DNA of 64,000 nucleotides, taken from positions 11,888 to 75,887 of the forward strand of contig JACPOP010000020.1 of NCBI GenBank assembly GCA_016191465.1, given 5' to 3'. Made by a program: the position numbers and the translations under genes. The notes under the pieces are model-generated. The model saw only the letters and a program-made list of their open reading frames with translations. It had not been told where the DNA came from and did no database searches. Of this stretch, positions 237 to 49,553 are shown piece by piece; positions within the stretch are counted from its first letter, which is position 1, and every line of letters starts with the position of its first letter. The DNA is from Chloroflexota bacterium (GTDB lineage Bacteria > Chloroflexota > UBA6077 > CF-72).

Positions 237-1151
237 TTAGCGGTTCGTGTCGGGCCGGGGGTCCGGAGAGGTGAAGCTCGCCCGGTTGGGCATCTGCACG
301 CGGGGCAAGGTTTGCGCGTCCATGCGGTCGTTCTCGCCGATGAGGCCGTTTGCCGAGAGCAGGAACGCGGTGAGCTGATACACCTCCTGGTCTGACAGCG
401 AGCCCGGGGCGTTGAAGGGCATGGCGCGTCGGATGTAGTCGTACAGCGTGGGGGCGTACGGCCAGTAGTTGCCCACCGTGGCCGTCACGGTGCCGGCGCG
501 GAATGGCGTTGCGTCGACGAGCTTCGGGCCGGCGGCGGTACCTTCCCCGTTGGCGGCGTGGCAGGCCGCGCACTTGGCGGTGTAGACGGCGCGGCCCTCC
601 GTCGCGGTGCCGCCGCCCTGGGGCAGGCCCGCGCCGTCGCTGCCACGAATCTCGATGTCGATGCCCCGAACGCGGTCCTGGGTGGCGGGCCGTCCGAAGC
701 CGAACGTCCCGGCCGCCGCTGGGCTGGGCGCCGGCGCCGGCGAGGCAAACGCCGCCGGGCTGGCCGCGGGTTTGGCAACCGGCGCAGCCGGGGCTGGGGC
801 CGCCGAGGGCACCGGCGGGCGAGCCTCCGGGGTTCCGGGCCCGGTGGCCGTGTTGGCCGCCGTGCCAGGCGATGCCGCGGGAGAGGCCGCAACCGGCGAG
901 GCGGCCGGTGGAGGTGCAGATCGCGTGGCACTGGCGGCTGGCGAGCCTGCCCCTGCCGCACCCGGGGTTGCCGCGCCCCGGCCTGGATCGTTTGGCACAC
1001 ACGCGGCGGACCACAACGCCAGCGCAAGCGCAGCCAACGCCAGGCCTGCCGGCCGCAGCACCGTGCGAGCGCCCGACGCTGGGATCACGTCCACGATGGT
1101 GCGCCCTTCGCGCTTCACGGTTGCGTTGCCATGCCGAGCGGCGCGAAGCAT
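237..1151 (-). CDS. sorB: Lipoprotein-type c-type cytochrome, SorB-like partner of the sulfite dehydrogenase
   Basis: C-terminal haem motif CAACH in a cytochrome c-like domain (GRAVYTAKCAACHAANGEG...NYWPYAPTLYDYIRRAMP). Lipobox-like LALALWSAAC is followed by a roughly 100-aa Ala/Pro linker. The start is trimmed to the ATG at 1151 because the longer ORF overlaps sorA. The gene is co-oriented with and directly downstream of sorA. Confidence 0.75.
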   Translation of the reverse strand: MLRAARHGNATVKREGRTIVDVIPASGARTVLRPAGLALAALALALWSAACVPNDPGRGAATPGAAGAGSPAASATRSAPPPAASPVAASPAASPGTAANTATGPGTPEARPPVPSAAPAPAAPVAKPAASPAAFASPAPAPSPAAAGTFGFGRPATQDRVRGIDIEIRGSDGAGLPQGGGTATEGRAVYTAKCAACHAANGEGTAAGPKLVDATPFRAGTVTATVGNYWPYAPTLYDYIRRAMPFNAPGSLSDQEVYQLTAFLLSANGLIGENDRMDAQTLPRVQMPNRASFTSPDPRPDTNR

Positions 1152-1239
1152 CCGCTGCGCTGGATCGCCGTTGTCCTGCCGTGGCGGACCACTCGGGACG
1201 TGGCGGCTCACACGCCCGGCGCTGGCGCCGCTCACCGGG

Positions 1240-4099: not shown

Positions 4100-4631
4100 A
4101 TGCCCCGCAGCCTGGTGGCGCTCAGCGCGGCCGCCATCAGCGCCGTGTACGCGGCTGGCTACGTGCAGACGCGCACCGCGGATGCGCAATTGGGCGCGAG
4201 TGGCCCCCTGCTGTCCACGACCAGCCGCGCCGCCGCGGCTCCGGCAGCCACCCCGATCCCCACTCCGCTCGTGCTGCAACGCGGCGACGACGGCCGGCCG
4301 GCCAATCCGTTCGACGGACGGGGGTCCGGGCAGGAGCGGCGCGGGCGCGCCGCCCCCCCCCCCCCCCCCCCCCAATGTGGGCCCGGCCCCCCGGCGCCCG
4401 GCGCACCCCCGCCAAAGCCACCTGTGGGTGGCCGTGACCGTGCAGGGCGGACGGATCGCCTCGGTCGAGATCACACGGTCCACGCTCCAGTACCCGGTGC
4501 GCGTGATCGAGGGTCTCCCGGGCCAGGTGACTGCGCGCCAGGGCCCGCAGGTGGATGCCATCAGCGGCGCCACCTACAGCGTGCAGGCGTTCCGTACCGC
4601 CGTCCAGCAGGCGCTGTCGCAGGCGGCCTGA
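4100..4631 (+). pseudogene. FMN_bind-domain membrane/secreted protein, apparently frameshifted at or near a C21 homopolymer
   Basis: The N-terminal anchor MPRSLVALSAAAISAVYAAGYVQTRTAD plus an Ala/Pro/Thr linker is in the frame of ATG 4100. The FMN_bind C-terminus (WVAVTVQGGRIASVEI...QVDAISGATYSVQAFRTAVQQAL) is in the frame ending at 4631. The frames change across the poly-C run at 4353-4373. Confidence 0.55.
4353..4373. repeat. Homopolymeric tract of 21 consecutive C residues
   Basis: Counted directly from the sequence (8+10+3 C). Confidence 0.95.
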
Positions 4632-24554: not shown

Positions 24555-25802
24555 ATGGCACTGGCATCAAGGATTCGCCCACGACGTTCGCACGCGGTGA
24601 TCGCGGCGCTGGCCACCGGGGCGTTGTGGATCGCGGCCTGTGCGCCGGCCGCGCCCAGCCCAACCGCCGCTCCCGCGGCACCCAAGCCCACCGCACCGGT
24701 AGCAACCTCCGCTCCCGCGGCACCGGCAGCGACCGCGGCTCCAGCCGCACCCGCCGCGGCCACGGCACCCTCCCCGGCGGCAGCAGCCAAGCCCGCCGCG
24801 GCCGCGTCACCGACGACCAGTCGCGGGCTCCAGCTTGCCAAGCCGCTTGCTCCGCTCAACCCGCCCGTCACAGTCAAAGCGCGGGTCGGGAGCTCGCTGA
24901 CGACGGCGCCGTTCTGGTACGCCATCGAGAAGGGCTACTTCAGCGAGCTCGGCATCACCTTTCAGCAGGTCGACATTCAGAACTCGAGCGACGTGATCTC
25001 GCCGATGGCGACTGGACAGATCGACATCGCAGGAACCTCGTTTGGCACCGGGCTCTACAACGCCATCAACCGCAACGTGAACGTGAAGGCCGTGGCTGAT
25101 AACGGCCAGTTGGACAAGGGACTGGCCGGGTCGGCCGCCGTGGTGAAAAAGGGTGCCCGGGCGCAATACGGCAGCGACTGGTGTGCCCTGAAAGGCAAGA
25201 AGGTCGCCGTGTCGGGTCGGACCACCGGCCTGTTCGTCACCCTCTGGAAGGCACTGGAGAGCTGCAAGCTGACGATCGACGACGTGCAGCTCATCGAGCT
25301 CGGCTTCCCCGAGACAAACGTGGCCCTCGCCAGTGGCGCGGTGGACGTGGGCTTCCAGGTAGAGCCGTTCGTGAGCCGCGGCATCGAAGAGAACATTCTT
25401 GAAATCTGGCGGCCTTTGGATGAAGGCCTCGAGGGCCAGCAGATGAACGTGCTGCTGTATTCGGATCAGTTCCAGCAGAACAAGGAAGCCGGCTTGCGCT
25501 TCCTCGTCGCATACATCGCCGGCGCCCGTGACTACCGCCGCGCGATTGAAGGCACCGGCGACCGGGAGGAGATGGGCCGCTTCTTCGCCAAGTACCTCAC
25601 GGTCAAGGATCCTGCCGCCTACGGCAAAATGATCATGATGGGCGTGGACCCCAACGGCGAGATCGACGTGCCCACGGTGCGGGAGTCCATCAGAGTCTTC
25701 CAGCAGAACGGCACCATCGAAGCCGGCGACGTGAACCTGAACTGGATCGACAACACGCTTCGGAACCAGGCGCTGGAGTACCTGGGGCCCTACAAGCCCT
25801 GA
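24555..25802 (+). CDS. Lipoprotein ABC substrate-binding protein, NMT1/TauA/SsuA (NitT/TauT) type, with no cognate permease or ATPase nearby
   Basis: Lipobox ALWIAAC, a roughly 60-aa Ala/Pro linker, then an NMT1-like body (APFWYAIEKGYFSELGITFQQVDIQNSSDVISPMATGQIDIAG). Confidence 0.8.
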   Translation: MALASRIRPRRSHAVIAALATGALWIAACAPAAPSPTAAPAAPKPTAPVATSAPAAPAATAAPAAPAAATAPSPAAAAKPAAAASPTTSRGLQLAKPLAPLNPPVTVKARVGSSLTTAPFWYAIEKGYFSELGITFQQVDIQNSSDVISPMATGQIDIAGTSFGTGLYNAINRNVNVKAVADNGQLDKGLAGSAAVVKKGARAQYGSDWCALKGKKVAVSGRTTGLFVTLWKALESCKLTIDDVQLIELGFPETNVALASGAVDVGFQVEPFVSRGIEENILEIWRPLDEGLEGQQMNVLLYSDQFQQNKEAGLRFLVAYIAGARDYRRAIEGTGDREEMGRFFAKYLTVKDPAAYGKMIMMGVDPNGEIDVPTVRESIRVFQQNGTIEAGDVNLNWIDNTLRNQALEYLGPYKP

Positions 25803-31099: not shown

Positions 31100-32329
31100 T
31101 TACTCCCCACCGGCTCCCGCCGGTGGAATCCAGATGGGGTAGCCCTTCAGGACCTGGACGCGGTTGTTGTAGCGATCCGCCAGGAAGACCTCGCCGCGAC
31201 CATTGGCCACGAGGTGATGCGGGAAGGCGAACTGGCCCGGCTCGTCGCCGATGCCGGTCCGCGGGCATGGGCCCACCGCATCCTCGTCGGTACACCGGCC
31301 CGCCCAGGCCAGCGGAATGCCTTCCGGCGCAAAGACCACCATCCGCTGGTTATCGGTATCGCTGACGTATACGTTGCCATCGGTATCGACCGCCACGCCA
31401 CGCGGCGCATCGAGCCGGACGAAGGTCTCGTCCGCGATCGCGAAGCGGCTGAGCAGGGCACCGTCGCGGGTGAACTTGCGCACCGCGTTCAACAGGGCAT
31501 CGGCGATGTAGACGTTGCCGTCCGCGTCGAAGGCAATGCCATCGCCGGCCCGGAAGCCGGTTGGGGCATCCGAGAGCGGCGTGCCCCACGTCCCCAGGTA
31601 GGCGCCGCTGGACTGGAACCGTTTCACGCCGAAGGCGCCGTCCACCACGTACAGCGTGCCGCTGCCGTCTACGCCAACGGACAGGCTGCCGTTGAACCAC
31701 GCCTCCGGGGGAACCACGTTGCACTTCACGGGAGCGGTGATGGCTGGACACGCACTCTCACGGGTCCAGACGGCGTCCACCGTGCCCGAAGGCGTGAAGC
31801 GCTGCACCCGGTTGTTGCCACTATCCGCGGCGTACACGTTGCCGGCGGCGTCCACCGCCAGACCTTCCAGGCGCTCGAACTGGCCGGCGCCTTTACCCGG
31901 CGAGCCCCACGTCGCCAGCACGGCCCCGTCCCTGGACAGTTTCGTTATCCGGCCTCCCAGCGGGTCGTAGCTCGCCACGTACACGTTGCAGGCCCGATCC
32001 ACGGCCACGCCGAAAGGGGTGGTGATCGACGCATCGTTGGAGAACACTTCCCAACGGTATTCCCAGCCGCCGAAGGTGTCGTCCGGGCTGGTGCGCCCGA
32101 CTTCCCTATCGACCAGGCCGGAGCACCGCAGGCCCTCGGGGGCAAGCGGCGTCAGCTCGGCTGCCAGGGACGGACCCGGGCGGAGCGCCAGGAGCAGCGT
32201 GGTCAACGCGCTGAGCAGGCCCATCCACCGGTATGCCGGGCGCGGAACTGCGGCCGCCACGACGGTCGGGCAAGCGCGGGTGTCAACGGGGCGTGGCAGA
32301 TGCATCGGTGCGAATGTCTCCTCCGACAT
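31100..32329 (-). CDS. Secreted NHL-repeat six-bladed beta-propeller protein
   Basis: Repeated blades of the form P.GVAVD..GNVYVAD..NNRVQ.F. An N-terminal hydrophobic signal is present. The start is ambiguous (ATG at 32329, 32305 or 32224). Confidence 0.75.
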   Translation of the reverse strand: MSEETFAPMHLPRPVDTRACPTVVAAAVPRPAYRWMGLLSALTTLLLALRPGPSLAAELTPLAPEGLRCSGLVDREVGRTSPDDTFGGWEYRWEVFSNDASITTPFGVAVDRACNVYVASYDPLGGRITKLSRDGAVLATWGSPGKGAGQFERLEGLAVDAAGNVYAADSGNNRVQRFTPSGTVDAVWTRESACPAITAPVKCNVVPPEAWFNGSLSVGVDGSGTLYVVDGAFGVKRFQSSGAYLGTWGTPLSDAPTGFRAGDGIAFDADGNVYIADALLNAVRKFTRDGALLSRFAIADETFVRLDAPRGVAVDTDGNVYVSDTDNQRMVVFAPEGIPLAWAGRCTDEDAVGPCPRTGIGDEPGQFAFPHHLVANGRGEVFLADRYNNRVQVLKGYPIWIPPAGAGGE

Positions 32330-32450
32330 CAGGTAGAACGGCGATCGGCGCCAGGAAGGGTCGCATGCTGGCCGGCCTGGCTTCACGCTGCACGGGACGG
32401 GCCACGGCGGCTAGCACCGATGGACGGAAGGGCACGGGTGGTTGGCTCCT

Positions 32451-32550
32451 GTCATCCTGAGCGGAGTAAAGGATCCATGCGAGCGCCAAGTTCCAAGTGG
32501 AGACGGATCGTTCGGTTCACTCAGGATGCGATCCGCCGGCGGCGGATCGC
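32451..32550 (+). repeat. Intergenic hairpin-module element, copy A (module, ccaagttccaag, inverted module, then a perfect 10-bp/3-nt-loop hairpin at 32528-32550)
   Basis: gtcatcctgagcggagtaaaggatcc (32451-32476) pairs with ggatcgttcggttcactcaggatgc (32505-32529); gcgatccgcc-ggc-ggcggatcgc follows. It lies between the RCC1 stop and the NHL start. Confidence 0.7.
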
Positions 32551-34171: not shown

Positions 34172-34332
34172 GTCATCCTGAGCGGAGCGAAGGATCCGTG
34201 GGTCAGGGTTCCAAGTTCCACGTTTGAAGATCCACGTTGTTGGTGGCCCGCCGCGTCTTGTCTCCTGATCACTGACAACTGACGACCGACGACTCGGTGA
34301 GTCGGATCCTTCGGCCGCAGCCGCAGGATGAC
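34172..34332 (+). repeat. Intergenic hairpin-module element, copy B (161 nt)
   Basis: gtcatcctgagcggagcgaaggatcc (34172-34197) pairs with ggatccttcggccgcagccgcaggatgac (34304-34332). The interior contains ttccaagttcca and a 7-nt periodic tract, tgatcac tgacaac tgacgac cgacgac (34266-34293). Confidence 0.7.
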
Positions 34333-34587
34333 CGGTGACAAGCACGGGAGTGCGTCCCCCCCGTACCGCTCGCCGAAAGAAGCTCACGTTCCAAAGCCTC
34401 GGAAATCGCGTCACACGTGCCCCCATCCCTACCTATCAACAGGCCGGGGTCACATTCTGTCAAGAAGTACCTTCTGCCTACCGACAGGCGTGCTGCCGCG
34501 GGAGGGCGACCAGCAGGTGTGGGTTGTGAGGAAGCAGATGGCAGGGACCCCCGGCCACCTGTGAACTTGGAACTCGGCACTTCGCCT

Positions 34588-35547
34588 TCAGTCCCAGCGG
34601 TAGCTGGCCCAGGCCCAATCCAGCAGCGCCGCCGCGTCGGTCGGAAGGTCGTCGCTCTTGAGGACGGTGACGTACAGTCGGCGCCCGCCGCGTTCGGCGG
34701 AAGCGACCATGGTGCGGCCCGCGGCTCGGGTGAAGCCGATCTTGACGCCATCCGCGCCGGGATAGCGGCCCAGCAGCCGGTTCAGGTTGGCGAACCGGAA
34801 GCCTTCGCCCGCGTAGGACTGGGTGCGTGCCAGGGCCGCGAACGTTTCCCAGCGCCGCATCCCGTCCCGGGCGAACAGAGCTAGGTCCCGGGCGCTGGAG
34901 TAGTGCTGGGGATTGTCGAGGCCATGGGGATTGACGTAGTGCGTATTCTGGAGCCCCAGCCAGGCCGCGCGCTCGTTCATCCAACCCACAAAGCGCTCGC
35001 GCGAGCCTTCGCCCACGGCGAGCGCTAACTGCTCGGCCGCGTCGTTCCCGCTTGGCAGCATGAGCCCGTACAGGATCGTCTCCAGCCGGAGCTGCTCGCC
35101 GGGCTGCAGACCCATGACGGTTGAGCCCCGGGCGGCCATGGCCCCGCCGTCGATGGTGACCGGGACCGCCTCGGCCAGCCGCTCTTCGCCCCACCGCTCC
35201 AGCACCACCGACGTCGTGGCGATCTTGGTGGTGCTGGCAATCGCCACCCGGTCATCTTCGCCCTGGCCCTGGAGGAGCAGCCCGCTGCCCTCGTCGAGCA
35301 CCGCCCAGCGCGCGGCGGACAGCTTCGGGAGGGGCACGTCGCGCGTGCGAGCCGGCGGCTCCAGGTACGGCAGGCGGCGGCGAGCGCTGGAAAGCGTGCG
35401 CCAGGCGGGGTCGAGCGGCCAGTCGTCGCGTGCCCCGGCCGCCGCCGCGGACGTGATGCCGCCCGACCCGATGAGCACGGCGGCGCCGCCGACAGCGCCC
35501 GCCACAAACGCCCGCCGGCTGAACGTTCGATCTCGCTGCTCCGCCAT
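34588..35547 (-). CDS. D-alanyl-D-alanine carboxypeptidase (S11 penicillin-binding protein)
   Basis: Tat-like signal FSRRAFVAGAVGGAAV, SxxK (ASTTK), SGN (LPSGND). The ATG at 35547 is 11 nt after the ilvA stop. Confidence 0.85.
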   Translation of the reverse strand: MAEQRDRTFSRRAFVAGAVGGAAVLIGSGGITSAAAAGARDDWPLDPAWRTLSSARRRLPYLEPPARTRDVPLPKLSAARWAVLDEGSGLLLQGQGEDDRVAIASTTKIATTSVVLERWGEERLAEAVPVTIDGGAMAARGSTVMGLQPGEQLRLETILYGLMLPSGNDAAEQLALAVGEGSRERFVGWMNERAAWLGLQNTHYVNPHGLDNPQHYSSARDLALFARDGMRRWETFAALARTQSYAGEGFRFANLNRLLGRYPGADGVKIGFTRAAGRTMVASAERGGRRLYVTVLKSDDLPTDAAALLDWAWASYRWD

Positions 35548-35557
35548 GGGGCGGACG

Positions 35558-36850
35558 TTACCGCGTCCCGCCCTCCGATCCCAGGGATTCCTCGGCCGGG
35601 TAGCCGGCAGCACGGATCCGCCCCAGCACGTACTCCGCGTGAGCGTGGTCGCGCGTCTCCACGATGAGGTCCAGGCCTACCCGTCCGAGCGCGGTGTATG
35701 GCCCAAGGCGGTGGATGCCGACGTGCAGAATGTTGACGCGCTCGGTGGTGAGCAGGCTAGTCAGGTCGTGCAACTGGCCGGGCTTGTCGTCCAGCCAGGT
35801 CTGGATAGCCAGGTAGCGGCCGGCGCTCACCAGGCCGTGCTGGAGCACCTTGCCCAGCAGGATCGGATCGATGTTACCGCCGCTGACGATCACGCCCACC
35901 CGCCGCGGGCCGGCCGGAATCGCCCCTTCCAGGAGTGCCGCGAGTGCCGTGGCGCCAGCGCCCTCGGCTAACTGCTTGTGGCGCTCCAGCAGCAACAGGA
36001 TGGCGCGGGCAATGGCTTCGTCGGAGACGGTGACCACGTCGTCCACCAGCGACTGGATCACCGCGAACGTTCGCGCGCCGGGCGTCTTGACGGCGATGCC
36101 GTCGGCGATGGTGCTGGAAGGGTGGGTCTGGATCTCGCCAGCTTTAAACGAGGCGGCCAGGGCGCCCGAGCCGGCGGCTTGCACGCCGTACACTCTCATC
36201 CCCGGCCGCATCGCCCGCGCCGCCGTCGCCACGCCCGAGATCAGACCGCCGCCGCCCACGGGGACGAGCAGCGCGTCCAGATCCGGCACGTCTTCCAGCA
36301 GCTCCATGGCCAGGGCGCCCTGGCCCGCCATCACATCGGGATCGTCGAAGGCGTGGATGTAGACGAGGTCTCGCTCGGCGGCAAGCGCCACCGCGTGCGC
36401 GTGCGCCTCGTCGTACGAGGCGCCTTCGAGGACTATTTCCGCCCCGTGCCGCTGAATTGCGGCGAGCTTAGCGAGCGGCGCGCCGACCGGCAGGACCACG
36501 GTGGCGTGGGTCTCCAGCAGCCTGGCGGCGAGCGCCACACCCTGGCCGTGGTTGCCGGCGGAAGCCGTGAGCACGCCCCGCGCGCGCTCGGCAGGGTCCA
36601 TGGCGAGCAGCCGGGCGAGCGCGCCGCGCAGCTTGAACGCGCCGGTGTGCTGCTGGTTCTCCAGCTTGAGAAACACCTCGCGCCCAGTGATGACGCCCAG
36701 GTCCGCCGAGTGCTCGACGGGCGTACGCCGCACGTACGGCGCCTGGCGCTCGCGCGCTAACTCGACGCGCGCGAACGTCAGGCGGTCGCCTTCGCAGGGG
36801 TCGGTCGGGGTGGGCGGGTGGACAGTTGCGCTGGTGGTCATGGTGGGCAT
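35558..36850 (-). CDS. ilvA: Threonine ammonia-lyase (PLP-dependent) with a C-terminal ACT-like domain
   Basis: PLP-lysine motif LENQQHTGAFKLRGA, SAGNHGQGVA, GGGGLISG, and a C-terminal regulatory domain. Confidence 0.9.
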   Translation of the reverse strand: MPTMTTSATVHPPTPTDPCEGDRLTFARVELARERQAPYVRRTPVEHSADLGVITGREVFLKLENQQHTGAFKLRGALARLLAMDPAERARGVLTASAGNHGQGVALAARLLETHATVVLPVGAPLAKLAAIQRHGAEIVLEGASYDEAHAHAVALAAERDLVYIHAFDDPDVMAGQGALAMELLEDVPDLDALLVPVGGGGLISGVATAARAMRPGMRVYGVQAAGSGALAASFKAGEIQTHPSSTIADGIAVKTPGARTFAVIQSLVDDVVTVSDEAIARAILLLLERHKQLAEGAGATALAALLEGAIPAGPRRVGVIVSGGNIDPILLGKVLQHGLVSAGRYLAIQTWLDDKPGQLHDLTSLLTTERVNILHVGIHRLGPYTALGRVGLDLIVETRDHAHAEYVLGRIRAAGYPAEESLGSEGGTR

Positions 36851-46789: not shown

Positions 46790-47563
46790 GTGGCTGAGCT
46801 GGCAGCCGAGGCTCTGCTGAGCGCCTCGGTCATCCTGGCGCGCGAGGCCGATGGCGCCCCGCCCGAGTTCTTTATGGTGCGGCGGAGCGAGCGTTCACAC
46901 CTGGGCCCGGCCCTGGTGTTTCCCGGAGGCGTCGTCCGACCCGACGACGCCGAGGGGCCCTGGTCGGAGACGGAGAACGCCTCGGCCCTTGCCGCGGACG
47001 TGGAGCGACGCGCCGAGCAGCCCGCGCCGAGCTTCGCGCGCGTGCTCGCCTGCGCGGTTCGCGAGCTGTTCGAGGAAGCCGGCGTGCTGCTGGCGGAGGG
47101 TGCCGCCCCCGGCGCGGACGCTCTCGTGCCGGCGCGGGCCGCGCTTCAGCGTGAGGAGCTCAGCCTCTCCGCGCTGCTCACCCGCTGGAACCTGCGGGCG
47201 TCCTACGGGGCGCTTACCGCGTTTTCCCACTGGATCACACCCATCGCCCGGCCCTCGCGCTTCGACACCTGGTTCTTCGTGGCCGAGATGCCCGATGCGC
47301 AGGCAGCCGTCCACTGCGACATTGAGACCACGGACAGCGCGTGGATCTCGGCCAGGGACGCGCTGGAGGCAGGAGCGAGTGGCAGAGCCTCGCTCGTGTT
47401 CGCCACCGAGGCGCACTTGCGGCGGCTGGCGCCGTTCGGTTCCCTTGATGACCTGGTGCGGTTCGCGCGAACGAAGGCGATACCGACGGTTTTCCCGACC
47501 ATCCAGCGCCTCCCACAGGGCCCGACTCCCGTACTCGACGCAGACCTCGTCGATCGCTGGTAG
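46790..47563 (+). CDS. NUDIX-family hydrolase
   Basis: LVFPGGVV...AVRELFEEAGVLL Nudix-box-like segment. GTG start. Confidence 0.75.
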   Translation: MAELAAEALLSASVILAREADGAPPEFFMVRRSERSHLGPALVFPGGVVRPDDAEGPWSETENASALAADVERRAEQPAPSFARVLACAVRELFEEAGVLLAEGAAPGADALVPARAALQREELSLSALLTRWNLRASYGALTAFSHWITPIARPSRFDTWFFVAEMPDAQAAVHCDIETTDSAWISARDALEAGASGRASLVFATEAHLRRLAPFGSLDDLVRFARTKAIPTVFPTIQRLPQGPTPVLDADLVDRW

Positions 47564-47574
47564 TGCGCCGCGGC

Positions 47575-47786
47575 GAGTTGCAAGTTCCAAGTTCCAAGTT
47601 GCAAGTTTGGAGTTGTCGGGTGTCCTCCGGAGGCCGCGGCCGAAGGATCCGTGCTCGTGCGTGGGAGACGGATCCTTCGCTGCGCTCAAGGATGACACGG
47701 ACACTTCGTCTCCTTGGAACTTGGAACTTGGAACTTGGAACTTGGAACTTGGAACTTGGAACTCGGAGCTCGGAGCTCGGAGCTCG
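47575..47786. repeat. Composite intergenic element, copy C: left heptamer array, hairpin core, right heptamer array
   Basis: 47575-47616: six degenerate RAGTTNN heptamers. 47620-47696: gtgtcctccggaggccgcggccgaaggatcc, 19 nt, ggatccttcgctgcgctcaaggatgac. 47713-47761: 7 exact CTTGGAA units. 47762-47782: 3 exact CTCGGAG units (plus ctcg). Confidence 0.9.
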
Positions 47787-47835
47787 TCGGCCCGCCGCAC
47801 CGTGTCGCCGTCCGGGCGGGGCGTAGACTGACAGG

Positions 47836-49230
47836 GTGACTGTCGCACCCTCGTACGTCCCTGGACCCCTCGTTGACACCGCCGACGTGCTGCGGGCCGA
47901 CGAGGAACACCTGATTCACCCGCTTCAGCACCCGTCGGACCACGCGCGGCCGCTGCTGTTCGTCCGCGGTGAGGGCGCCGAGCTCATCGACTCGGAGGGG
48001 AACCGTTACATCGACGGGCTCTCCTGCCTGTGGAACGTCAACGTCGGCCACGGACGCGCCGAGCTCGCGGACGCCGCGGCAGCGCAAATGCGCCAGTTGG
48101 CCTACGCCTCGGCCTACGTCGGGTTCGTGAACGCGCCCGCGGCGTTGCTGGCCGAACGGCTGGTGGACGTGGCGTATCCCAACATGAGCGGCGTGTACTT
48201 CACGACCAGTGGAGCCGAGGCGAACGAGTCGGCGTTTAAGATGGCTCGCTACTATTGGAAGCTGCGCGGGCTGCCCGACAAGGTCAAGGTGATCTCGCGC
48301 CGGTGGGGCTACCACGGCGTGACCATGGCGGCTGCCAGCGCCACCGGCCTGCCCGTGTACCACAAGATGTTCGCACCGCTGGTGCCGAACTTCGTGCAGG
48401 CCGTCGGACCCTACCGCTTCCGCTGTGAGATGGAAGGTCCCGATGGTCCGCGACCGTGCACCGCACCGGAGGAGCACGACTATGCCGCCGAGCTGGAGCG
48501 TACGCTCGTGGCGGAAGGGCCGGAGACGGTCGCGGCGATTATCGCCGAGCCCATCCAGGGCGCGGGGGGTGTCATTCCCCCACCTGCCGACTACTGGGCG
48601 AAGCTACGCGCCATCGCCGACCGGCACGAAGTCTTGCTGATTGCCGACGAGGTGATCACCGGGTTTGGCCGCACCGGCCGCTGGTTCGGATTGGAGCACT
48701 GGGGCGTGCAGCCGGACCTGCTCAGCTTCGCAAAGGGCGTCACAAGCGCCTACCTCCCGCTGGGAGGGGTGATCGTCTCGCGCACCCTGCACGAGGCCAT
48801 CCAGGGAGCCCCAGCCGATATGAAGTTCATGCACGCGGCGACGTACTCGGGCCATCCCACCTGCTGCGCGGTAGCGCTGGCAAACCTGGACATCATCGAG
48901 CGCGAGGCGCTGGTCCAGCGAGCGGCCGAGCTTGCGCCGCGCTTCCTGCAACGGCTGGAGACCCTGCGGGCATTGCCACGGGTAGGCGACGTCAGAGGCC
49001 TCGGAATGATGGCCGCAGTTGAGCTGGTGGATCCCGGCGCGTCTGGCGCGGCGTACTACGACAATGCCGCGCCGCTCGCCGGCCGTGTGATGCGCGAGAG
49101 CATGCGCCGGGGCCTGATACCGAGGCTGCGAGGAAACGTGGTGTGCCTGGCCCCGCCCTTGGTCACCACGGACGAGCAGGTGGAGCGCCTGGTGCAGATC
49201 CTCGGCGACGCAATCCAGGCCACGGCGTAG
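47836..49230 (+). CDS. Class-III PLP-dependent aminotransferase (omega-transaminase type)
   Basis: SGAEANESAFKMARYYW, LLIADEVITGFGRTGRWFG, FAKGVTSAYLPLGG (Schiff-base Lys). GTG start. Confidence 0.9.
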   Translation: MTVAPSYVPGPLVDTADVLRADEEHLIHPLQHPSDHARPLLFVRGEGAELIDSEGNRYIDGLSCLWNVNVGHGRAELADAAAAQMRQLAYASAYVGFVNAPAALLAERLVDVAYPNMSGVYFTTSGAEANESAFKMARYYWKLRGLPDKVKVISRRWGYHGVTMAAASATGLPVYHKMFAPLVPNFVQAVGPYRFRCEMEGPDGPRPCTAPEEHDYAAELERTLVAEGPETVAAIIAEPIQGAGGVIPPPADYWAKLRAIADRHEVLLIADEVITGFGRTGRWFGLEHWGVQPDLLSFAKGVTSAYLPLGGVIVSRTLHEAIQGAPADMKFMHAATYSGHPTCCAVALANLDIIEREALVQRAAELAPRFLQRLETLRALPRVGDVRGLGMMAAVELVDPGASGAAYYDNAAPLAGRVMRESMRRGLIPRLRGNVVCLAPPLVTTDEQVERLVQILGDAIQATA

Positions 49231-49244
49231 CGCGATCTGTCGAA

Positions 49245-49553
49245 GTGGCGGAAACCGTCTGGACACGCGCTCACGTCCGCGTCAGCGGGCGCGTGCAGGG
49301 AGTCGGTTTCCGCTACGCCACCCGCACCGAGGCGAATCGCGCGCACGCCGCGGGCTGGGTGCGTAATCTACCTGCTGGCGAAGTTGAAGCCGTCTTCGAG
49401 GGACCACGGGAAGCCGTGGAAGCGCTTGTCCGATGGTGCCACCAGGGTCCGCCTGGAAGCTGGGTACGAAGTGTCAGGGTAGATTGGACCGAGCCGGTGG
49501 AGCACCTGGCGGGGTTCTCGGTGCGCGCGTCGGACTGGACGCTCGGCGACTGA
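49245..49553 (+). CDS. acyP: Acylphosphatase
   Basis: VSGRVQGVGFRY...GWVRNLPAGEVEAVFEG signature. GTG at 49245, just after the aminotransferase stop. Confidence 0.8.
   Translation: MAETVWTRAHVRVSGRVQGVGFRYATRTEANRAHAAGWVRNLPAGEVEAVFEGPREAVEALVRWCHQGPPGSWVRSVRVDWTEPVEHLAGFSVRASDWTLGD

Follow-up and report, generated by a model that had tools for sequence, protein, structure and literature searches.

A spacer of 272 nt separates the stop codon of a NUDIX gene (47561-47563) from the GTG start codon (47836) of a co-directional class-III aminotransferase gene in the window, the 64,000-nt stretch of DNA analysed here as a whole. This spacer contains a 212-base repeat stretch in which two mutually inverted arrays of heptamers enclose an inverted dimer of short stem-loop modules (Table 1). 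Every feature of the element lies exactly where an earlier sequence-only reading had placed it, correct to the base, and coordinates, inverted repeats and predicted folds agree with the anatomy proposed there, in which inverted arrays form one long stem around an inner hairpin. CTTGGAA is a phase of GGAACTT, and the outer part is a convergent pair of heptamer microsatellites, 5'-(AAGTTCC)n...(GGAACTT)m-3'. In an inverted-repeat search, its two arms showed 88% complementarity across 41 nt. Further inside, a perfect 12-bp inverted repeat (CGAAGGATCCGT/ACGGATCCTTCG) flanks the 19-nt spacer between the modules. In the predicted fold, GGACAC of the linker pairs with GTGTCC at 47620-47625 and CTCC of the linker with GGAG at 47610-47613. 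Nothing in the left arm pairs with the CTCGGAG array, part of which is self-complementary (GAGCTC). Since the heptamer arrays do not contain any GGG run, no quadruplex is possible.

Table 1. Repeat features of the window with their positions and strands.
Feature	Position	Strand	Description
Sister REP dimer A	32451-32535	+	between two minus-strand genes
Sister REP dimer B	34172-34334	+	107-nt spacer
Isolated short GGAACTT-type tract	34559-34580	+	tgaactt ggaactc ggcactt
5' arm of heptamer palindrome	47575-47616	+	AAGTTCC type; TRF period 7, 4.6 copies; six degenerate units (RAGTTNN): gagttgc aagttcc aagttcc aagttgc aagtttg gagttgt
REP-like module, GC-rich apical hairpin and degenerate tag	47620-47650	-	minus-strand read GGATCCTTCGGCCGCGGCCTCCGGAGGACAC
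Dimer spacer	47651-47669		19 nt (gtgctcgtgcgtgggagac)
REP-like module, common type	47670-47696	-	minus-strand read GTCATCCTTGAGCGCAGCGAAGGATCC
Linker	47697-47712		16 nt (acggacacttcgtctc)
3' arm of heptamer palindrome	47713-47761	+	7 exact CTTGGAA; TRF score 103
Second heptamer array	47762-47786	+	3 exact CTCGGAG (47762-47782) followed by CTCG

The repeat stretch is non-coding, as had been proposed from the sequence, because the C-terminal W in which the NUDIX protein terminates is also kept in relatives and the overlapping ORFs that run through the repeat have no Pfam match. An exact-protein look-up of the aminotransferase and of the ORF at 31100-32386 returned no record of either. Both junctions between unique sequence and array are reproduced by an independent short-read assembly (Logan, SRR12113392, the only run in which proteins of the window were found), at the end of contig L001 and the start of contig L002. 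This assembly breaks within both arrays, and the interior of the element is therefore represented by the window assembly only. These breaks, together with the terminal unit of L001, which reads aagttcc where the fifth unit of the left arm in the window reads aagtttg, could indicate collapsed or chimeric repeats. Nevertheless, an assembly artefact is very improbable given the independently reproduced junctions, the lengths of the arrays (42 and 74 nt), which are below the typical read length, and the presence of the same architecture in independent assemblies of other organisms.

The repeat structure is far above chance expectation. The RNA fold of the spacer reaches -149 kcal/mol (z = -7.4), and its other strand has a z of -7.4 as well, as is to be expected for a DNA palindrome. 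Folded as DNA, positions 47570-47790 yield -70.8 kcal/mol (z = -10.2), and the inverted dimer forms one hairpin of -49.4 kcal/mol (z = -4.4). The pattern of the 27-mer module had no match in 100 shuffles, and CTTGGAACTTGGAA with up to two mismatches was found 14 times compared to 0.06 expected matches.

Such a very stable predicted structure on the sense strand directly upstream of a gene could suggest a dedicated cis-regulatory RNA, such as a leader or riboswitch-like element, for the aminotransferase. This explanation is hardly credible. The antisense strand folds equally well, and the element is built of repeats that are also found beside unrelated genes. At the gathering score, Rfam returned no match for the whole window, and with E-values up to 10, the sole two matches obtained for 47400-47950 were at chance level (E = 2.7 and 7.1). 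The composite element is also missing upstream of the orthologous gene in the two related genomes compared. In relatives with 72-74% protein identity, nifU occupies the position of the repeat; at the corresponding locus, one relative carries three singlet modules and zero heptamers and the other a clean 84-nt spacer. A structured RNA, one of the functions suggested on the basis of the sequence, is thus unlikely, given the lack of both an Rfam family and conservation in relatives.

The inner part of the element, previously described as a GGATCC-cored hairpin, is an inverted dimer of a stem-loop of about 26 nt, (T/C)GTC-ATCCT-GA-GC-GNA-GC-GA-AGGAT-CC. In this unit, the tag (T/C)GTC is unpaired. 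The basal stem, ATCCT/AGGAT, has 5 bp and is followed by a tandem G.A/A.G internal loop and a short apical stem-loop that varies; the tail is CC. The predicted fold of a single module, ...(((((..((...))..))))).., comprises 5 bp, a 2x2 internal loop and 2 bp. In total, the stem spans 9 positions and starts AT...AT, with G.A/A.G at positions 6-7 (ATCCT-GA-GC / GC-GA-AGGAT). The apical loop is a 3-nt GNA in the common type and has 4 nt in the GC-rich variant, represented by the right arm of dimer B, and many further apical variants exist across the family. At the locus, the module at 47620-47650 is the counterpart of this right arm of the 34.2-kb dimer, and the module at 47670-47696 contains one T more than the family consensus GTCATCCTGAGCGNAGCGAAGGATC. 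A hammerhead-like reading of GUC...CUGAGCG was discarded, as it is incompatible with core positions 8 and 9 and Rfam gave no match.

Variants of the module were collected by anchoring on the loop alone, which yielded 129 instances. The 5-bp basal stem is supported by compensatory changes, namely ATTCT/AGAAT (10 times), ATGCT/AGCAT (3), GTCCT/AGGAC (2) and ATCCC/GGGAT (1), and one of the relatives contributes the further variant ATTCC/GGAAT. The tags of these instances are TGTC (84), CGTC (7) and GGTC (3). Within the window, dimer A carries TGTC, dimer B CGTC and GGTC, and the copy at 47620-47696 (copy C) TGTC in its right arm and a degenerate tag in its left arm. The three bases past AGGAT are CTC (45), CCC (15) and CTA (10) family-wide; in the window, dimer A has the tail CCA, and CCG is found in B and C. 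GGATCC does not hold up as a conserved core, since the tail of the module is mostly CTC and not CC.

The module is present in more than 180 unrelated contigs with a GC content of 38-76%, mainly as inverted dimers, and also on plasmids of cyanobacteria and Bacteroidota. The exact 25-mer occurs in 64 IMG/VR stretches of 43-70% GC, frequently as inverted dimers with spacers of 20-90 nt, and GGATCC-cored dimers were found in at least 120 metagenome stretches. Across several phyla and 43-70% GC, this 25-nt REP-like sequence with its conserved tandem G.A internal loop is nearly unchanged. This unit is without an Rfam family, breaks short-read assemblies and generates spurious ORFs. Searches by sequence among 8 million full-text papers, with a 13-mer, 19-mers and six 12-mers, only returned primer coincidences.

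Judged by sequence and predicted fold, the module appears to fit the superfamily of CGTC/TGTC-tagged REPs (Di Nocera, De Gregorio and Rocco 2013, PMC3733652), which includes Neisseria dRS3 and Rickettsia RPE-4/6; the supplementary files of this publication contain no comparable REP sequences. According to the available part of this description, these REPs have a stem of 8-9 bp with A-T residues at the first and second positions, a loop of 4-5 nt and a short unpaired tail with the consensus CCA. Most of them form inverted dimers, with about 20-100 nt separating the two units, and lie between genes that are co-directional or convergent; dimers inserted within longer palindromes are on record (PMC3733652, section 7). 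As far as this description extends, the module shares with them the form of a short stem-loop whose terminal tag is unpaired (CGTC, replaced by TGTC in many repeats), a stem that opens with A-T and T-A and, in the window, a short unpaired tail that begins with CC. Inverted dimers with 20-100-nt spacers dominate in both, some of them embedded in longer palindromes, and both are distributed over several phyla, with copies between genes that are co-directional or convergent and with no dedicated transposase known. All three dimers of the window sit between co-directional genes. In contrast to the 8-9 continuous pairs described for these REPs, the module stem contains the tandem G.A/A.G internal loop. 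Its common-type loop has 3 nt (GNA), its tail is mostly CTC instead of CCA, and near-identical 25-mers span 43-70% GC. Chloroflexota, Cyanobacteria and Bacteroidota are not named as hosts of the exact unit in the available text of PMC3733652.

The dimers also resemble REPINs, which are REP doublets that form hairpins (Bertels and Rainey 2011, PMC3116915). In both cases, two inverted units and a spacer form one long hairpin, the doublet is more common than the singlet, and copies are extragenic and dispersed. However, REPINs are built from GTAG-type REPs instead of units with a TGTC/CGTC tag, and their cognate RAYT gene is flanked by the same REPs, while no link to a RAYT was found for the module. 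A tblastn search with three approximate RAYT/IS608 TnpA queries found no match in the window or beside modules in 2.3 Mb of loci. As RAYTs are present in one copy per genome, this negative result carries little weight. One RAYT-like ORF lies in a module-bearing locus (L307), and its flanks consist of different GC-rich repeats. The distribution of the module suggests that it is mobile, and no transposase could be tied to it by sequence. Among the three options put forward in the sequence-only reading, a non-autonomous mobile element is the most suitable one for the inner dimer, as a REP/REPIN-type element, but it does not apply to the heptamers.

The kinship of copy C with the modules at 32.4 and 34.2 kb and their opposite orientation, both claimed previously, are confirmed, because the arms of the sister dimers align best with copy C on the minus strand (43 invariant columns vs 24). 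In addition, the 3' end of the spacer at 47651-47669 (GTGGGAGAC) resembles the spacer end of the 32.4-kb dimer (GTGGAGAC). While copy C has its heptamers outside the dimer, the sister dimers have them within the spacer. In dimer A, these are about 1.5 AAGTTCC units (ccaagttccaagt); in dimer B, AAGTTCC-type units lie by the left arm and ACTGACA/ACTGACG/ACCGACG by the right arm, with convergent polarity. The isolated tract at 34559-34580 is located directly past the stop codon of the minus-strand gene 34588-35613. AAGTTCC-type tracts are thus found at 4 places in 64 kb, each at most about 250 nt from a dimer, and these heptamers occur in or beside all three dimers of the window. This association is tighter than in the wider samples and could reflect a causal link in this genome.

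In 80 genome loci with AAGTTCC arrays, no module was found at a distance of 300 nt or less from an array. Conversely, 120 of the 128 metagenome dimers are not flanked by period-7 arrays, seven have an array on one side and one on both sides. Since only this single dimer is flanked on both sides, the heptamers are not part of the REP unit. The assumption that the whole stretch of about 210 nt is a single element was therefore abandoned in favour of two separate classes, heptamers and modules, that co-occur only occasionally. Nesting recurs with other heptamers in four loci (L025, L034, L036 and L262). A search for the composite pattern AAGTTCCAAGTTCC-N(3-33)-GTCATYCY in 2.9 million IMG/VR contigs yielded one chance match in a 31%-GC contig, and the locus-specific loop CCGTGCTCGTGCGTGGGAGACGG had zero matches in JGI metagenomes.

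These results also bear on the possibility of a MITE, with the heptamer arrays as terminal inverted repeats and the GGATCC hairpin as its body. Long terminal inverted repeats, a size of about 210 nt, a position between genes and related pieces elsewhere in the window would be in line with such an element, as would the comparable layout in the four loci with nesting. However, those examples are built from unrelated heptamers, and the sister copies differ in layout, as they carry heptamers inside and not outside. There is neither a target-site duplication nor a direct repeat at 47575/47786, the arms are unequal, and one of them contains a second heptamer type. In conjunction with the single chance match of the composite pattern and the absence of the locus-specific loop from JGI metagenomes, this makes a MITE highly unlikely.

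Both component repeats are of known kinds. In Xanthomonas, 70-75 convergent heptamer pairs (GGGAATC) per genome have been reported (Rehm et al. 2015, PMC4692102). In Xanthomonas and for the cyanobacterial STRR, a single heptamer accounts for hundreds of arrays in one genome, and array length differs among related species (PMC4692102). The arrays described here are likewise intergenic tandem heptamers with several arrays of one heptamer per genome and, as in the Xanthomonas pairs, two nearby arrays lie on opposite strands in convergent orientation. In contrast to the Xanthomonas/Nostoc class, which contains G-runs for quadruplexes, AAGTTCC and CTCGGAG are without G-runs, and unlike the Xanthomonas pairs, the element has a soil Chloroflexota host and a REP dimer at its apex. 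Neisseria NIMEs and E. coli BIMEs are also intergenic mosaics of REP-type units interleaved with other short repeats, although the other repeats in these mosaics (PMC3733652, section 7) do not belong to the heptamer microsatellites, nor do they enclose the dimer in a palindrome. The earlier statement that the architecture is undescribed therefore has to be restricted: REP dimers in palindromes (PMC3733652) and convergent heptamer pairs (PMC4692102) are on record, and no description of their combination was found. Only the nesting and the strict orientation of the heptamer arrays are unusual.

We consider it probable that the stretch is nested selfish or neutral repeat DNA, in which two independent, widespread repeat classes form a large hairpin in an intergenic transcript. 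A REP dimer would have come to lie at the apex of a heptamer hairpin, and replication slippage may then have altered the unit numbers of the arms independently, leaving six degenerate units on one side and 7+3 exact units on the other. Slipped-strand expansion of the arms is plausible, the only hint being the conflicting end of contig L001. Regarding the order of events, either a REP could have entered a heptamer hairpin or heptamers could have grown around a REP hairpin.

A scan of 47300-48000 found neither a sigma-70-like promoter nor an intrinsic terminator; the stem is followed by gtcggcccgcc and not by a U-tract or T-run. The proposed tuning of promoter geometry is not supported, as no promoter-like site is present. 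With both genes in the same direction and no such site in their spacer, the hairpin of about 210 nt would form within a spanning NUDIX-aminotransferase transcript, starting 1-12 nt past the NUDIX stop codon. As known for REP and BIME elements, it may serve as an exonuclease barrier and/or partial attenuator and thereby uncouple the expression of the two genes. The element has probably not been under selection for dedicated control of the aminotransferase, and any effect on mRNA stability or read-through at this locus would be modest at best.

A stronger role is assumed if the element is a contingency locus in which slippage of the heptamer number tunes the aminotransferase via the length or structure of the 5' UTR. 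Haemophilus influenzae hmw1A (PMC12721329, PMC8262952) provides a precedent, with a 7-nt SSR upstream of the gene and a 5' UTR RNA structure through which heptamer phase variation is documented (PMC12721329). The perfect arrays of seven and three units, located 50-120 nt ahead of the start codon, would be suited to this, and the aagttcc of L001 in place of aagtttg is a hint of heterogeneity. However, hmw1A has a single direct array placed between a mapped promoter and the gene, and experimentally shown variation, whereas the arrays here are paired and without an evident promoter, with no sigma-70-like site in 47300-48000. Since the arrays are paired into the stem, changes in unit number mostly alter stem length and not spacing. 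Furthermore, similar arrays occur in ordinary spacers in many housekeeping contexts and many phyla. A contingency locus is thus quite unlikely.

The heptamer hairpins, so far described for Xanthomonas and as the STRR of cyanobacteria, are themselves widespread. (AAGTTCC)3 was found in at least 119 genome stretches, among them REP-free heptamer hairpins, from Planctomycetota, Verrucomicrobiota, Acidobacteriota, Bacteroidota, Chloroflexia, CPR and Proteobacteria. An inverted partner lies less than 400 nt away for 42 of the 140 AAGTTCC arrays, always in the order seen in the window; the AAGTTCC-type pairs elsewhere give 37:0 (37/37) for this order. Palindromes of other heptamers have the G-rich arm at the 5' side in a ratio of 35:3. 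The G>C polarity is not shared by hairpins in general, since ordinary inverted repeats show no strand bias (231:216). The 5'-arm heptamers share no phase motif beyond composition (4.22 bits vs a shuffled maximum of 4.14). The genes next to heptamer palindromes, oriented by a crude stop-to-stop ORF method, are co-directional in 27, convergent in 15 and divergent in 7 cases, which is not significantly different from 2:1:1. Single MAGs, such as Pyrinomonadaceae BC1.208 and Acidobacteriota VAR_17, contain one heptamer on several contigs.

One explanation for the nesting is that the hairpin of the REP dimer stalls polymerases on either side, which slip in steps of about 7 nt and thereby extend the palindrome outward. 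In this case, one mutational mechanism, and not chance nesting, would have produced the composite. Heptamers accompany all three dimers of the window, period-7 arrays are about 2-fold denser near modules (0.32 vs 0.15 per kb), and nine arrays were observed near dimers where about four were expected. One-sided arrays beside dimers keep the same convergent polarity, and this polarity is specific to heptamer palindromes and missing in ordinary inverted repeats. A 7-nt polymerase footprint has also been put forward to explain why heptamers are overrepresented in bacteria (Mrazek 2007, cited in PMC4679880 and PMC4692102). Nevertheless, this explanation is doubtful. The 2-fold enrichment is a raw value, and both repeat classes share an intergenic location; 120 of 128 dimers are heptamer-free and most heptamer hairpins REP-free. 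The same heptamer also occurs at many loci per genome, as at the four sites of the window and on the BC1.208 and VAR_17 contigs, and such a genome-wide recurrence of one heptamer is not predicted by local slippage.

A broader and still tentative interpretation, to which we assign a low probability, is that heptamer palindromes are pan-bacterial self-extending hairpins whose fixed polarity reflects an undescribed strand-specific process, with stable hairpins such as REP dimers as nuclei or apex. On the 5' side, there would be AAGTTCC or, with other heptamers, a G/purine-rich arm, the opposite order being essentially absent. The element in the window would be a snapshot of this process and not a case of chance nesting. 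Candidate processes for the polarity are nascent-strand slippage at the base of the hairpin and an unknown enzyme that recognises a single-stranded hairpin. Heptamer microsatellite hairpins are frequent in Planctomycetota, Verrucomicrobiota, Acidobacteriota, Chloroflexota, CPR and further groups, and their near-absolute strand polarity provides a handle on the origin of heptamer arrays, a question that dates from 1990.

The composite element at 47575-47786 is real and was accurately described in the sequence-only reading, whose coordinates were all borne out on reading window 47400-47960. A 19-nt spacer separates the two modules of its inner hairpin (copy C), which share a 12-bp inverted repeat without mismatches, with two GGATCC sites as its centre. 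Over 41 nt the heptamer arms show 88 % complementarity, and TRF scores for the arrays were 50, 103 and 51. Folding confirmed that the 272-nt spacer between the NUDIX and aminotransferase genes is strongly structured, with -149 kcal/mol for the RNA (z = -7.4, with an equal z-score for the opposite strand) and -70.8 kcal/mol for the DNA of 47570-47790 (z = -10.2). Since the module and heptamer patterns also had no occurrence in shuffled sequence, the composite structure is far beyond chance.

Parts of the composite element in window coordinates
Feature	Position	Basis
Six degenerate heptamers, left arm	47575-47616	sequence read and TRF
31-nt module	47620-47650	sequence read
27-nt module	47670-47696	sequence read
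16-nt linker	between 27-nt module and CTTGGAA array	sequence read
Seven exact CTTGGAA units	47713-47761	sequence read and TRF
Three exact CTCGGAG units, then CTCG	47762-47786	sequence read and TRF

Exact matches to the NUDIX protein and to an aminotransferase call with a shortened N-terminus came from a single Logan short-read assembly, that of run SRR12113392, the only run with matches to proteins of the window. There, one contig stops inside the left array and another starts inside the right array. Both unique-to-array junctions are thus confirmed independently, with the arrays acting as repeats at which assembly breaks; for the interior, the window assembly is the sole source. The final bases of contig L001 (9090-9101) read ...aagttgcaagttccaag against ...aagttgcaagtttggag at window 47603-47612, i.e. 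aagttcc versus aagtttg, which may mean that units of the left arm vary or that the assembly graph produced an artefact.

Both components are of kinds already known, namely an inverted dimer of REP type and a heptamer SSR pair in convergent orientation. What is new is the nesting of the dimer in the heptamer pair, as a variation on these kinds and not as another kind of element. The REP-like unit consists of a (T/C)GTC tag, a basal ATCCT/AGGAT stem, an interior with a GA/GA internal loop and an apical GC-GNA-GC, and a CC tail. The ViennaRNA fold of the isolated unit matches this layout exactly; for the GC-rich variant, present as the second arm in dimers B and C, the predicted stem is longer. 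Two further dimers, A (32451-32535) and B (34172-34334), are present in the window, and their arms align best with copy C reversed, in agreement with the opposite orientation proposed earlier.

Searching for further copies showed the unit to be widespread in IMG/VR, metagenomes and plasmids. The exact 25-mer GTCATCCTGAGCGNAGCGAAGGATC was found in 64 IMG/VR stretches with 43-70 % GC, often as an inverted dimer with a 20-90-nt spacer. GGATCC-cored dimers occur in at least 120 metagenome stretches (38-76 % GC), with 128 dimers among the matches listed, which keep the outer GTCATCCTGAG and CGAAGGATC and vary in the apical part. Plasmid BLAST detected the unit in Planktothrix, Gloeothece and Phocaeicola. 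Stem variation was surveyed with the loop as the only anchor, so that the stem was not preselected. Compensatory variants in this set were ATTCT/AGAAT (10 times), ATGCT/AGCAT (3), GTCCT/AGGAC (2) and ATCCC/GGGAT (1), with ATTCC/GGAAT as an additional one in a related genome, and the tag read TGTC 84 times and CGTC 7 times. GGATCC, previously regarded as the core, is not a family feature, and a CTC tail is commoner than CC in the loop-anchored set. Two IMG/VR contigs of about 90 % identity (L033 4120-4300, L062 3371-3610) differ in a segment of about 50 nt with the partner module (GAGATTCTCGCCGCAGCGGCTCAGAATGAC), a dimer-versus-singlet polymorphism of the unit; dimers and singlets interconvert.

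Two module or module-like occurrences lie within reading frames. The module-like GCCATGCCGAGCGGCGCGAAGCATCC at window 1128-1153, with the stem ATGCC/AGCAT (one mismatch) and loop GAGCGGCGCGA, is inside a long ORF (607-2751) and may be an intragenic REP-like unit. On Planktothrix agardhii NIES-204 plasmid3 (L317, AP017994.1 5833-7109), a module dimer at locus positions 555-800 is flanked by tandem half-modules (tgtcattctgagc... three times) and 21-nt tandem repeats with GGGGAATGACA at the end, all within an annotated 4.6-kb hypothetical CDS, which may be spurious or repeat-decorated.

According to Di Nocera et al. (PMC3733652), CGTC-tagged REPs are mostly inverted dimers with 20-100-nt spacers, sited between co-directional and convergent genes and without a dedicated transposase. 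The window unit agrees with this description in tag, A-T stem start, dimer organisation and location, whereas stem, loop and tail fit only loosely. It resembles REPINs (PMC3116915) in working but lacks the GTAG tag. With approximate RAYT and IS608 TnpA queries, tblastn detected no match in the window or beside modules in 2.3 Mb of loci. The sole RAYT-like ORF in a module-bearing locus (L307 5300-6300; ...PDHVHLLL...YIRQNPVRRGFV...) is 1.4 kb away from a TGTC module and has GC-rich inverted repeats on both sides (gtgtggggcgggcgcccc... / ggccagacgcgcgcgggggcgcgcgcgccaca) that are different from it; together, ORF and repeats resemble a REPtron/TIRtron and have no relation to that module. The layout of Neisseria dRS3 (CGTC-ATTCCCGC-loop-GCGGGAAT-CCA) is presumably equal to that of the window unit. 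Di Nocera et al. (PMC3733652) file dRS3 under CGTC-1.

Further heptamer arrays were also found, with (AAGTTCC)3 in at least 119 genome stretches when one genome per species was scanned. Among the matches listed, hosts include Planctomycetota, Verrucomicrobiota, Acidobacteriota, Bacteroidota, Chloroflexia, CPR and Proteobacteria, several MAGs carry (AAGTTCC)3 on multiple contigs, and 42 of the 140 AAGTTCC arrays are paired with an inverted array no more than 400 nt away. These listed pairs mostly have spacers of 12-60 nt, and the hairpin often spans the entire gap from a stop codon to the next start codon. No REP module was found near the AAGTTCC array at the 80 genome loci checked. The arrangement is identical to that of the GGGAATC arrays of Xanthomonas described by Rehm et al. 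(PMC4692102), which number about 185 per genome, form 70-75 pairs 'with convergent orientation', differ in length between species and are in their majority transcribed. That heptamers are over-represented in bacterial SSRs is traced to Mrazek 2007, as cited in PMC4692102 and PMC4679880.

The heptamer pairs are polar. All TRF-defined inverted period-7 pairs in the fetched DNA were considered (n = 76, non-redundant; e.g. L183 7025-7101, L136 2927-3000 and L154 4814-4873, with loci ranging from L005 to L316). The order AAGTTCC...GGAACTT, which is also that of window 47575-47786, was found in 37 of 37 AAGTTCC-type pairs. For the other heptamers (39 pairs), 35 pairs had a 5' arm with G>C and 3 one with C>G (p = 7e-8). 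Where a REP dimer has an array on one side, that array obeys the same rule, and the 'convergent' G-rich arrays of Xanthomonas (PMC4692102) are consistent with it. In this DNA, perfect inverted repeats of the ordinary sort are unbiased (231:216), and no shared phase motif accounting for the polarity was found. AAGTTCC hairpins in one genome have identical arms and unrelated loops, which makes it less likely that whole hairpins were simply copied and pasted; purely local slippage is made less likely by a single heptamer recurring at many loci.

Different heptamer types may adjoin in one tract (L083 620-680; L086, minus strand, about 2030-2090), with GAGTGCC x3 followed by AAGTTCC x3 or AGCTNTC x6 before AAGTTCC x3, and the switch from CTTGGAA to CTCGGAG in the composite element is of this sort. 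In IMG/VR, AAGTTCC arrays were seen directly in front of ORFs, or at their 5' end, with products that are phage packaging/portal-like as judged by eye only (L071 1787-1860; L076 9097-9125).

The earlier view of the whole 210 nt as one element does not hold in general. Among the 128 metagenome dimers listed, period-7 arrays were present on both sides of one and on one side of seven, and the 9 arrays observed beside dimers in the matches listed compare with about 4 expected from overall density, uncorrected for intergenic location. In IMG/VR loci, array density is about twofold higher near modules. The composite pattern with the AAGTTCC heptamer was not found in IMG/VR, nor was its locus-specific loop in JGI metagenomes. 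Nesting recurs with unrelated heptamers, namely AAGATAC (L025), AAATCCT (L034), AATTAAG (L036) and GTAGGGA (L262). AAGTTCC-type units accompany all three window dimers and are inside the dimer spacer in A and B. The simplest reading is that a REP dimer came to occupy the tip of a heptamer hairpin, after which slippage would have acted in each arm separately. Alternatively, the hairpin itself may nucleate heptamer arrays. REP dimers 'inserted within long palindromic sequences' were already reported by Di Nocera et al. (PMC3733652) for Thermomicrobium roseum, a member of the Chloroflexota, and for Anabaena variabilis and Halothiobacillus.

The neighbouring genes encode a NUDIX-family protein and a class-III aminotransferase; the best relatives of the latter are soil Chloroflexota MAG proteins (68-74 % identity). 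The stretch is non-coding, as had been proposed, since the C-terminal tryptophan of the NUDIX protein is also conserved in two relatives and the ORFs reading through the repeat have no Pfam match. Window 46790-49553 was compared with two related genomes (L003 4631-9019 and L004 8687-12569; 72-74 % protein identity), in which the gene order is Pyr_redox, NUDIX, NifU, aminotransferase, FolD, acylphosphatase. The window lacks both nifU (NifU_N), located between the NUDIX and aminotransferase genes in the relatives, and folD, located between the aminotransferase and acylphosphatase genes. As listed, the acylphosphatase ORF of the window has 88 nt in common with the 3' end of the aminotransferase gene. 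Upstream of the aminotransferase gene, one relative has a clean 84-nt spacer; in the other the spacer is 560 nt long and holds three singlet modules and zero heptamers. On this comparison, the composite element is not a conserved regulator of the aminotransferase gene, since it is missing there in both relatives.

Neither a sigma-70-like promoter nor a hairpin-plus-T-run was found in 47300-48000, and Rfam gave no match for the composite element. The suggested tuning of promoter geometry is therefore disfavoured by the missing promoter, and the suggested structured RNA by the missing Rfam match and the missing conservation in the two relatives. As the two genes are co-directional, the hairpin would most likely be part of a read-through transcript. 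If it behaves there as REP/BIME elements do, it would block 3' exonucleases or serve as a partial attenuator. Such roles were reportedly studied for malE-malF by Higgins and colleagues and, for REPs near stop codons, by Liang et al. in 2015.

The locus itself is ordinary, and it is the larger patterns that merit genome-scale attention: the pan-phylum TGTC module, apparently undescribed by sequence, and, as the second, the polar heptamer hairpins. Other repeats in the window are a run of 21 C (4353-4373) just before GCCCGGC heptamer-like repeats (4381-4404) and a 27-nt tandem repeat (CCGCACCGGCAGCAACCGCCGCTCCAG) with 2.3-2.8 copies at 24691-24766, which is probably coding.
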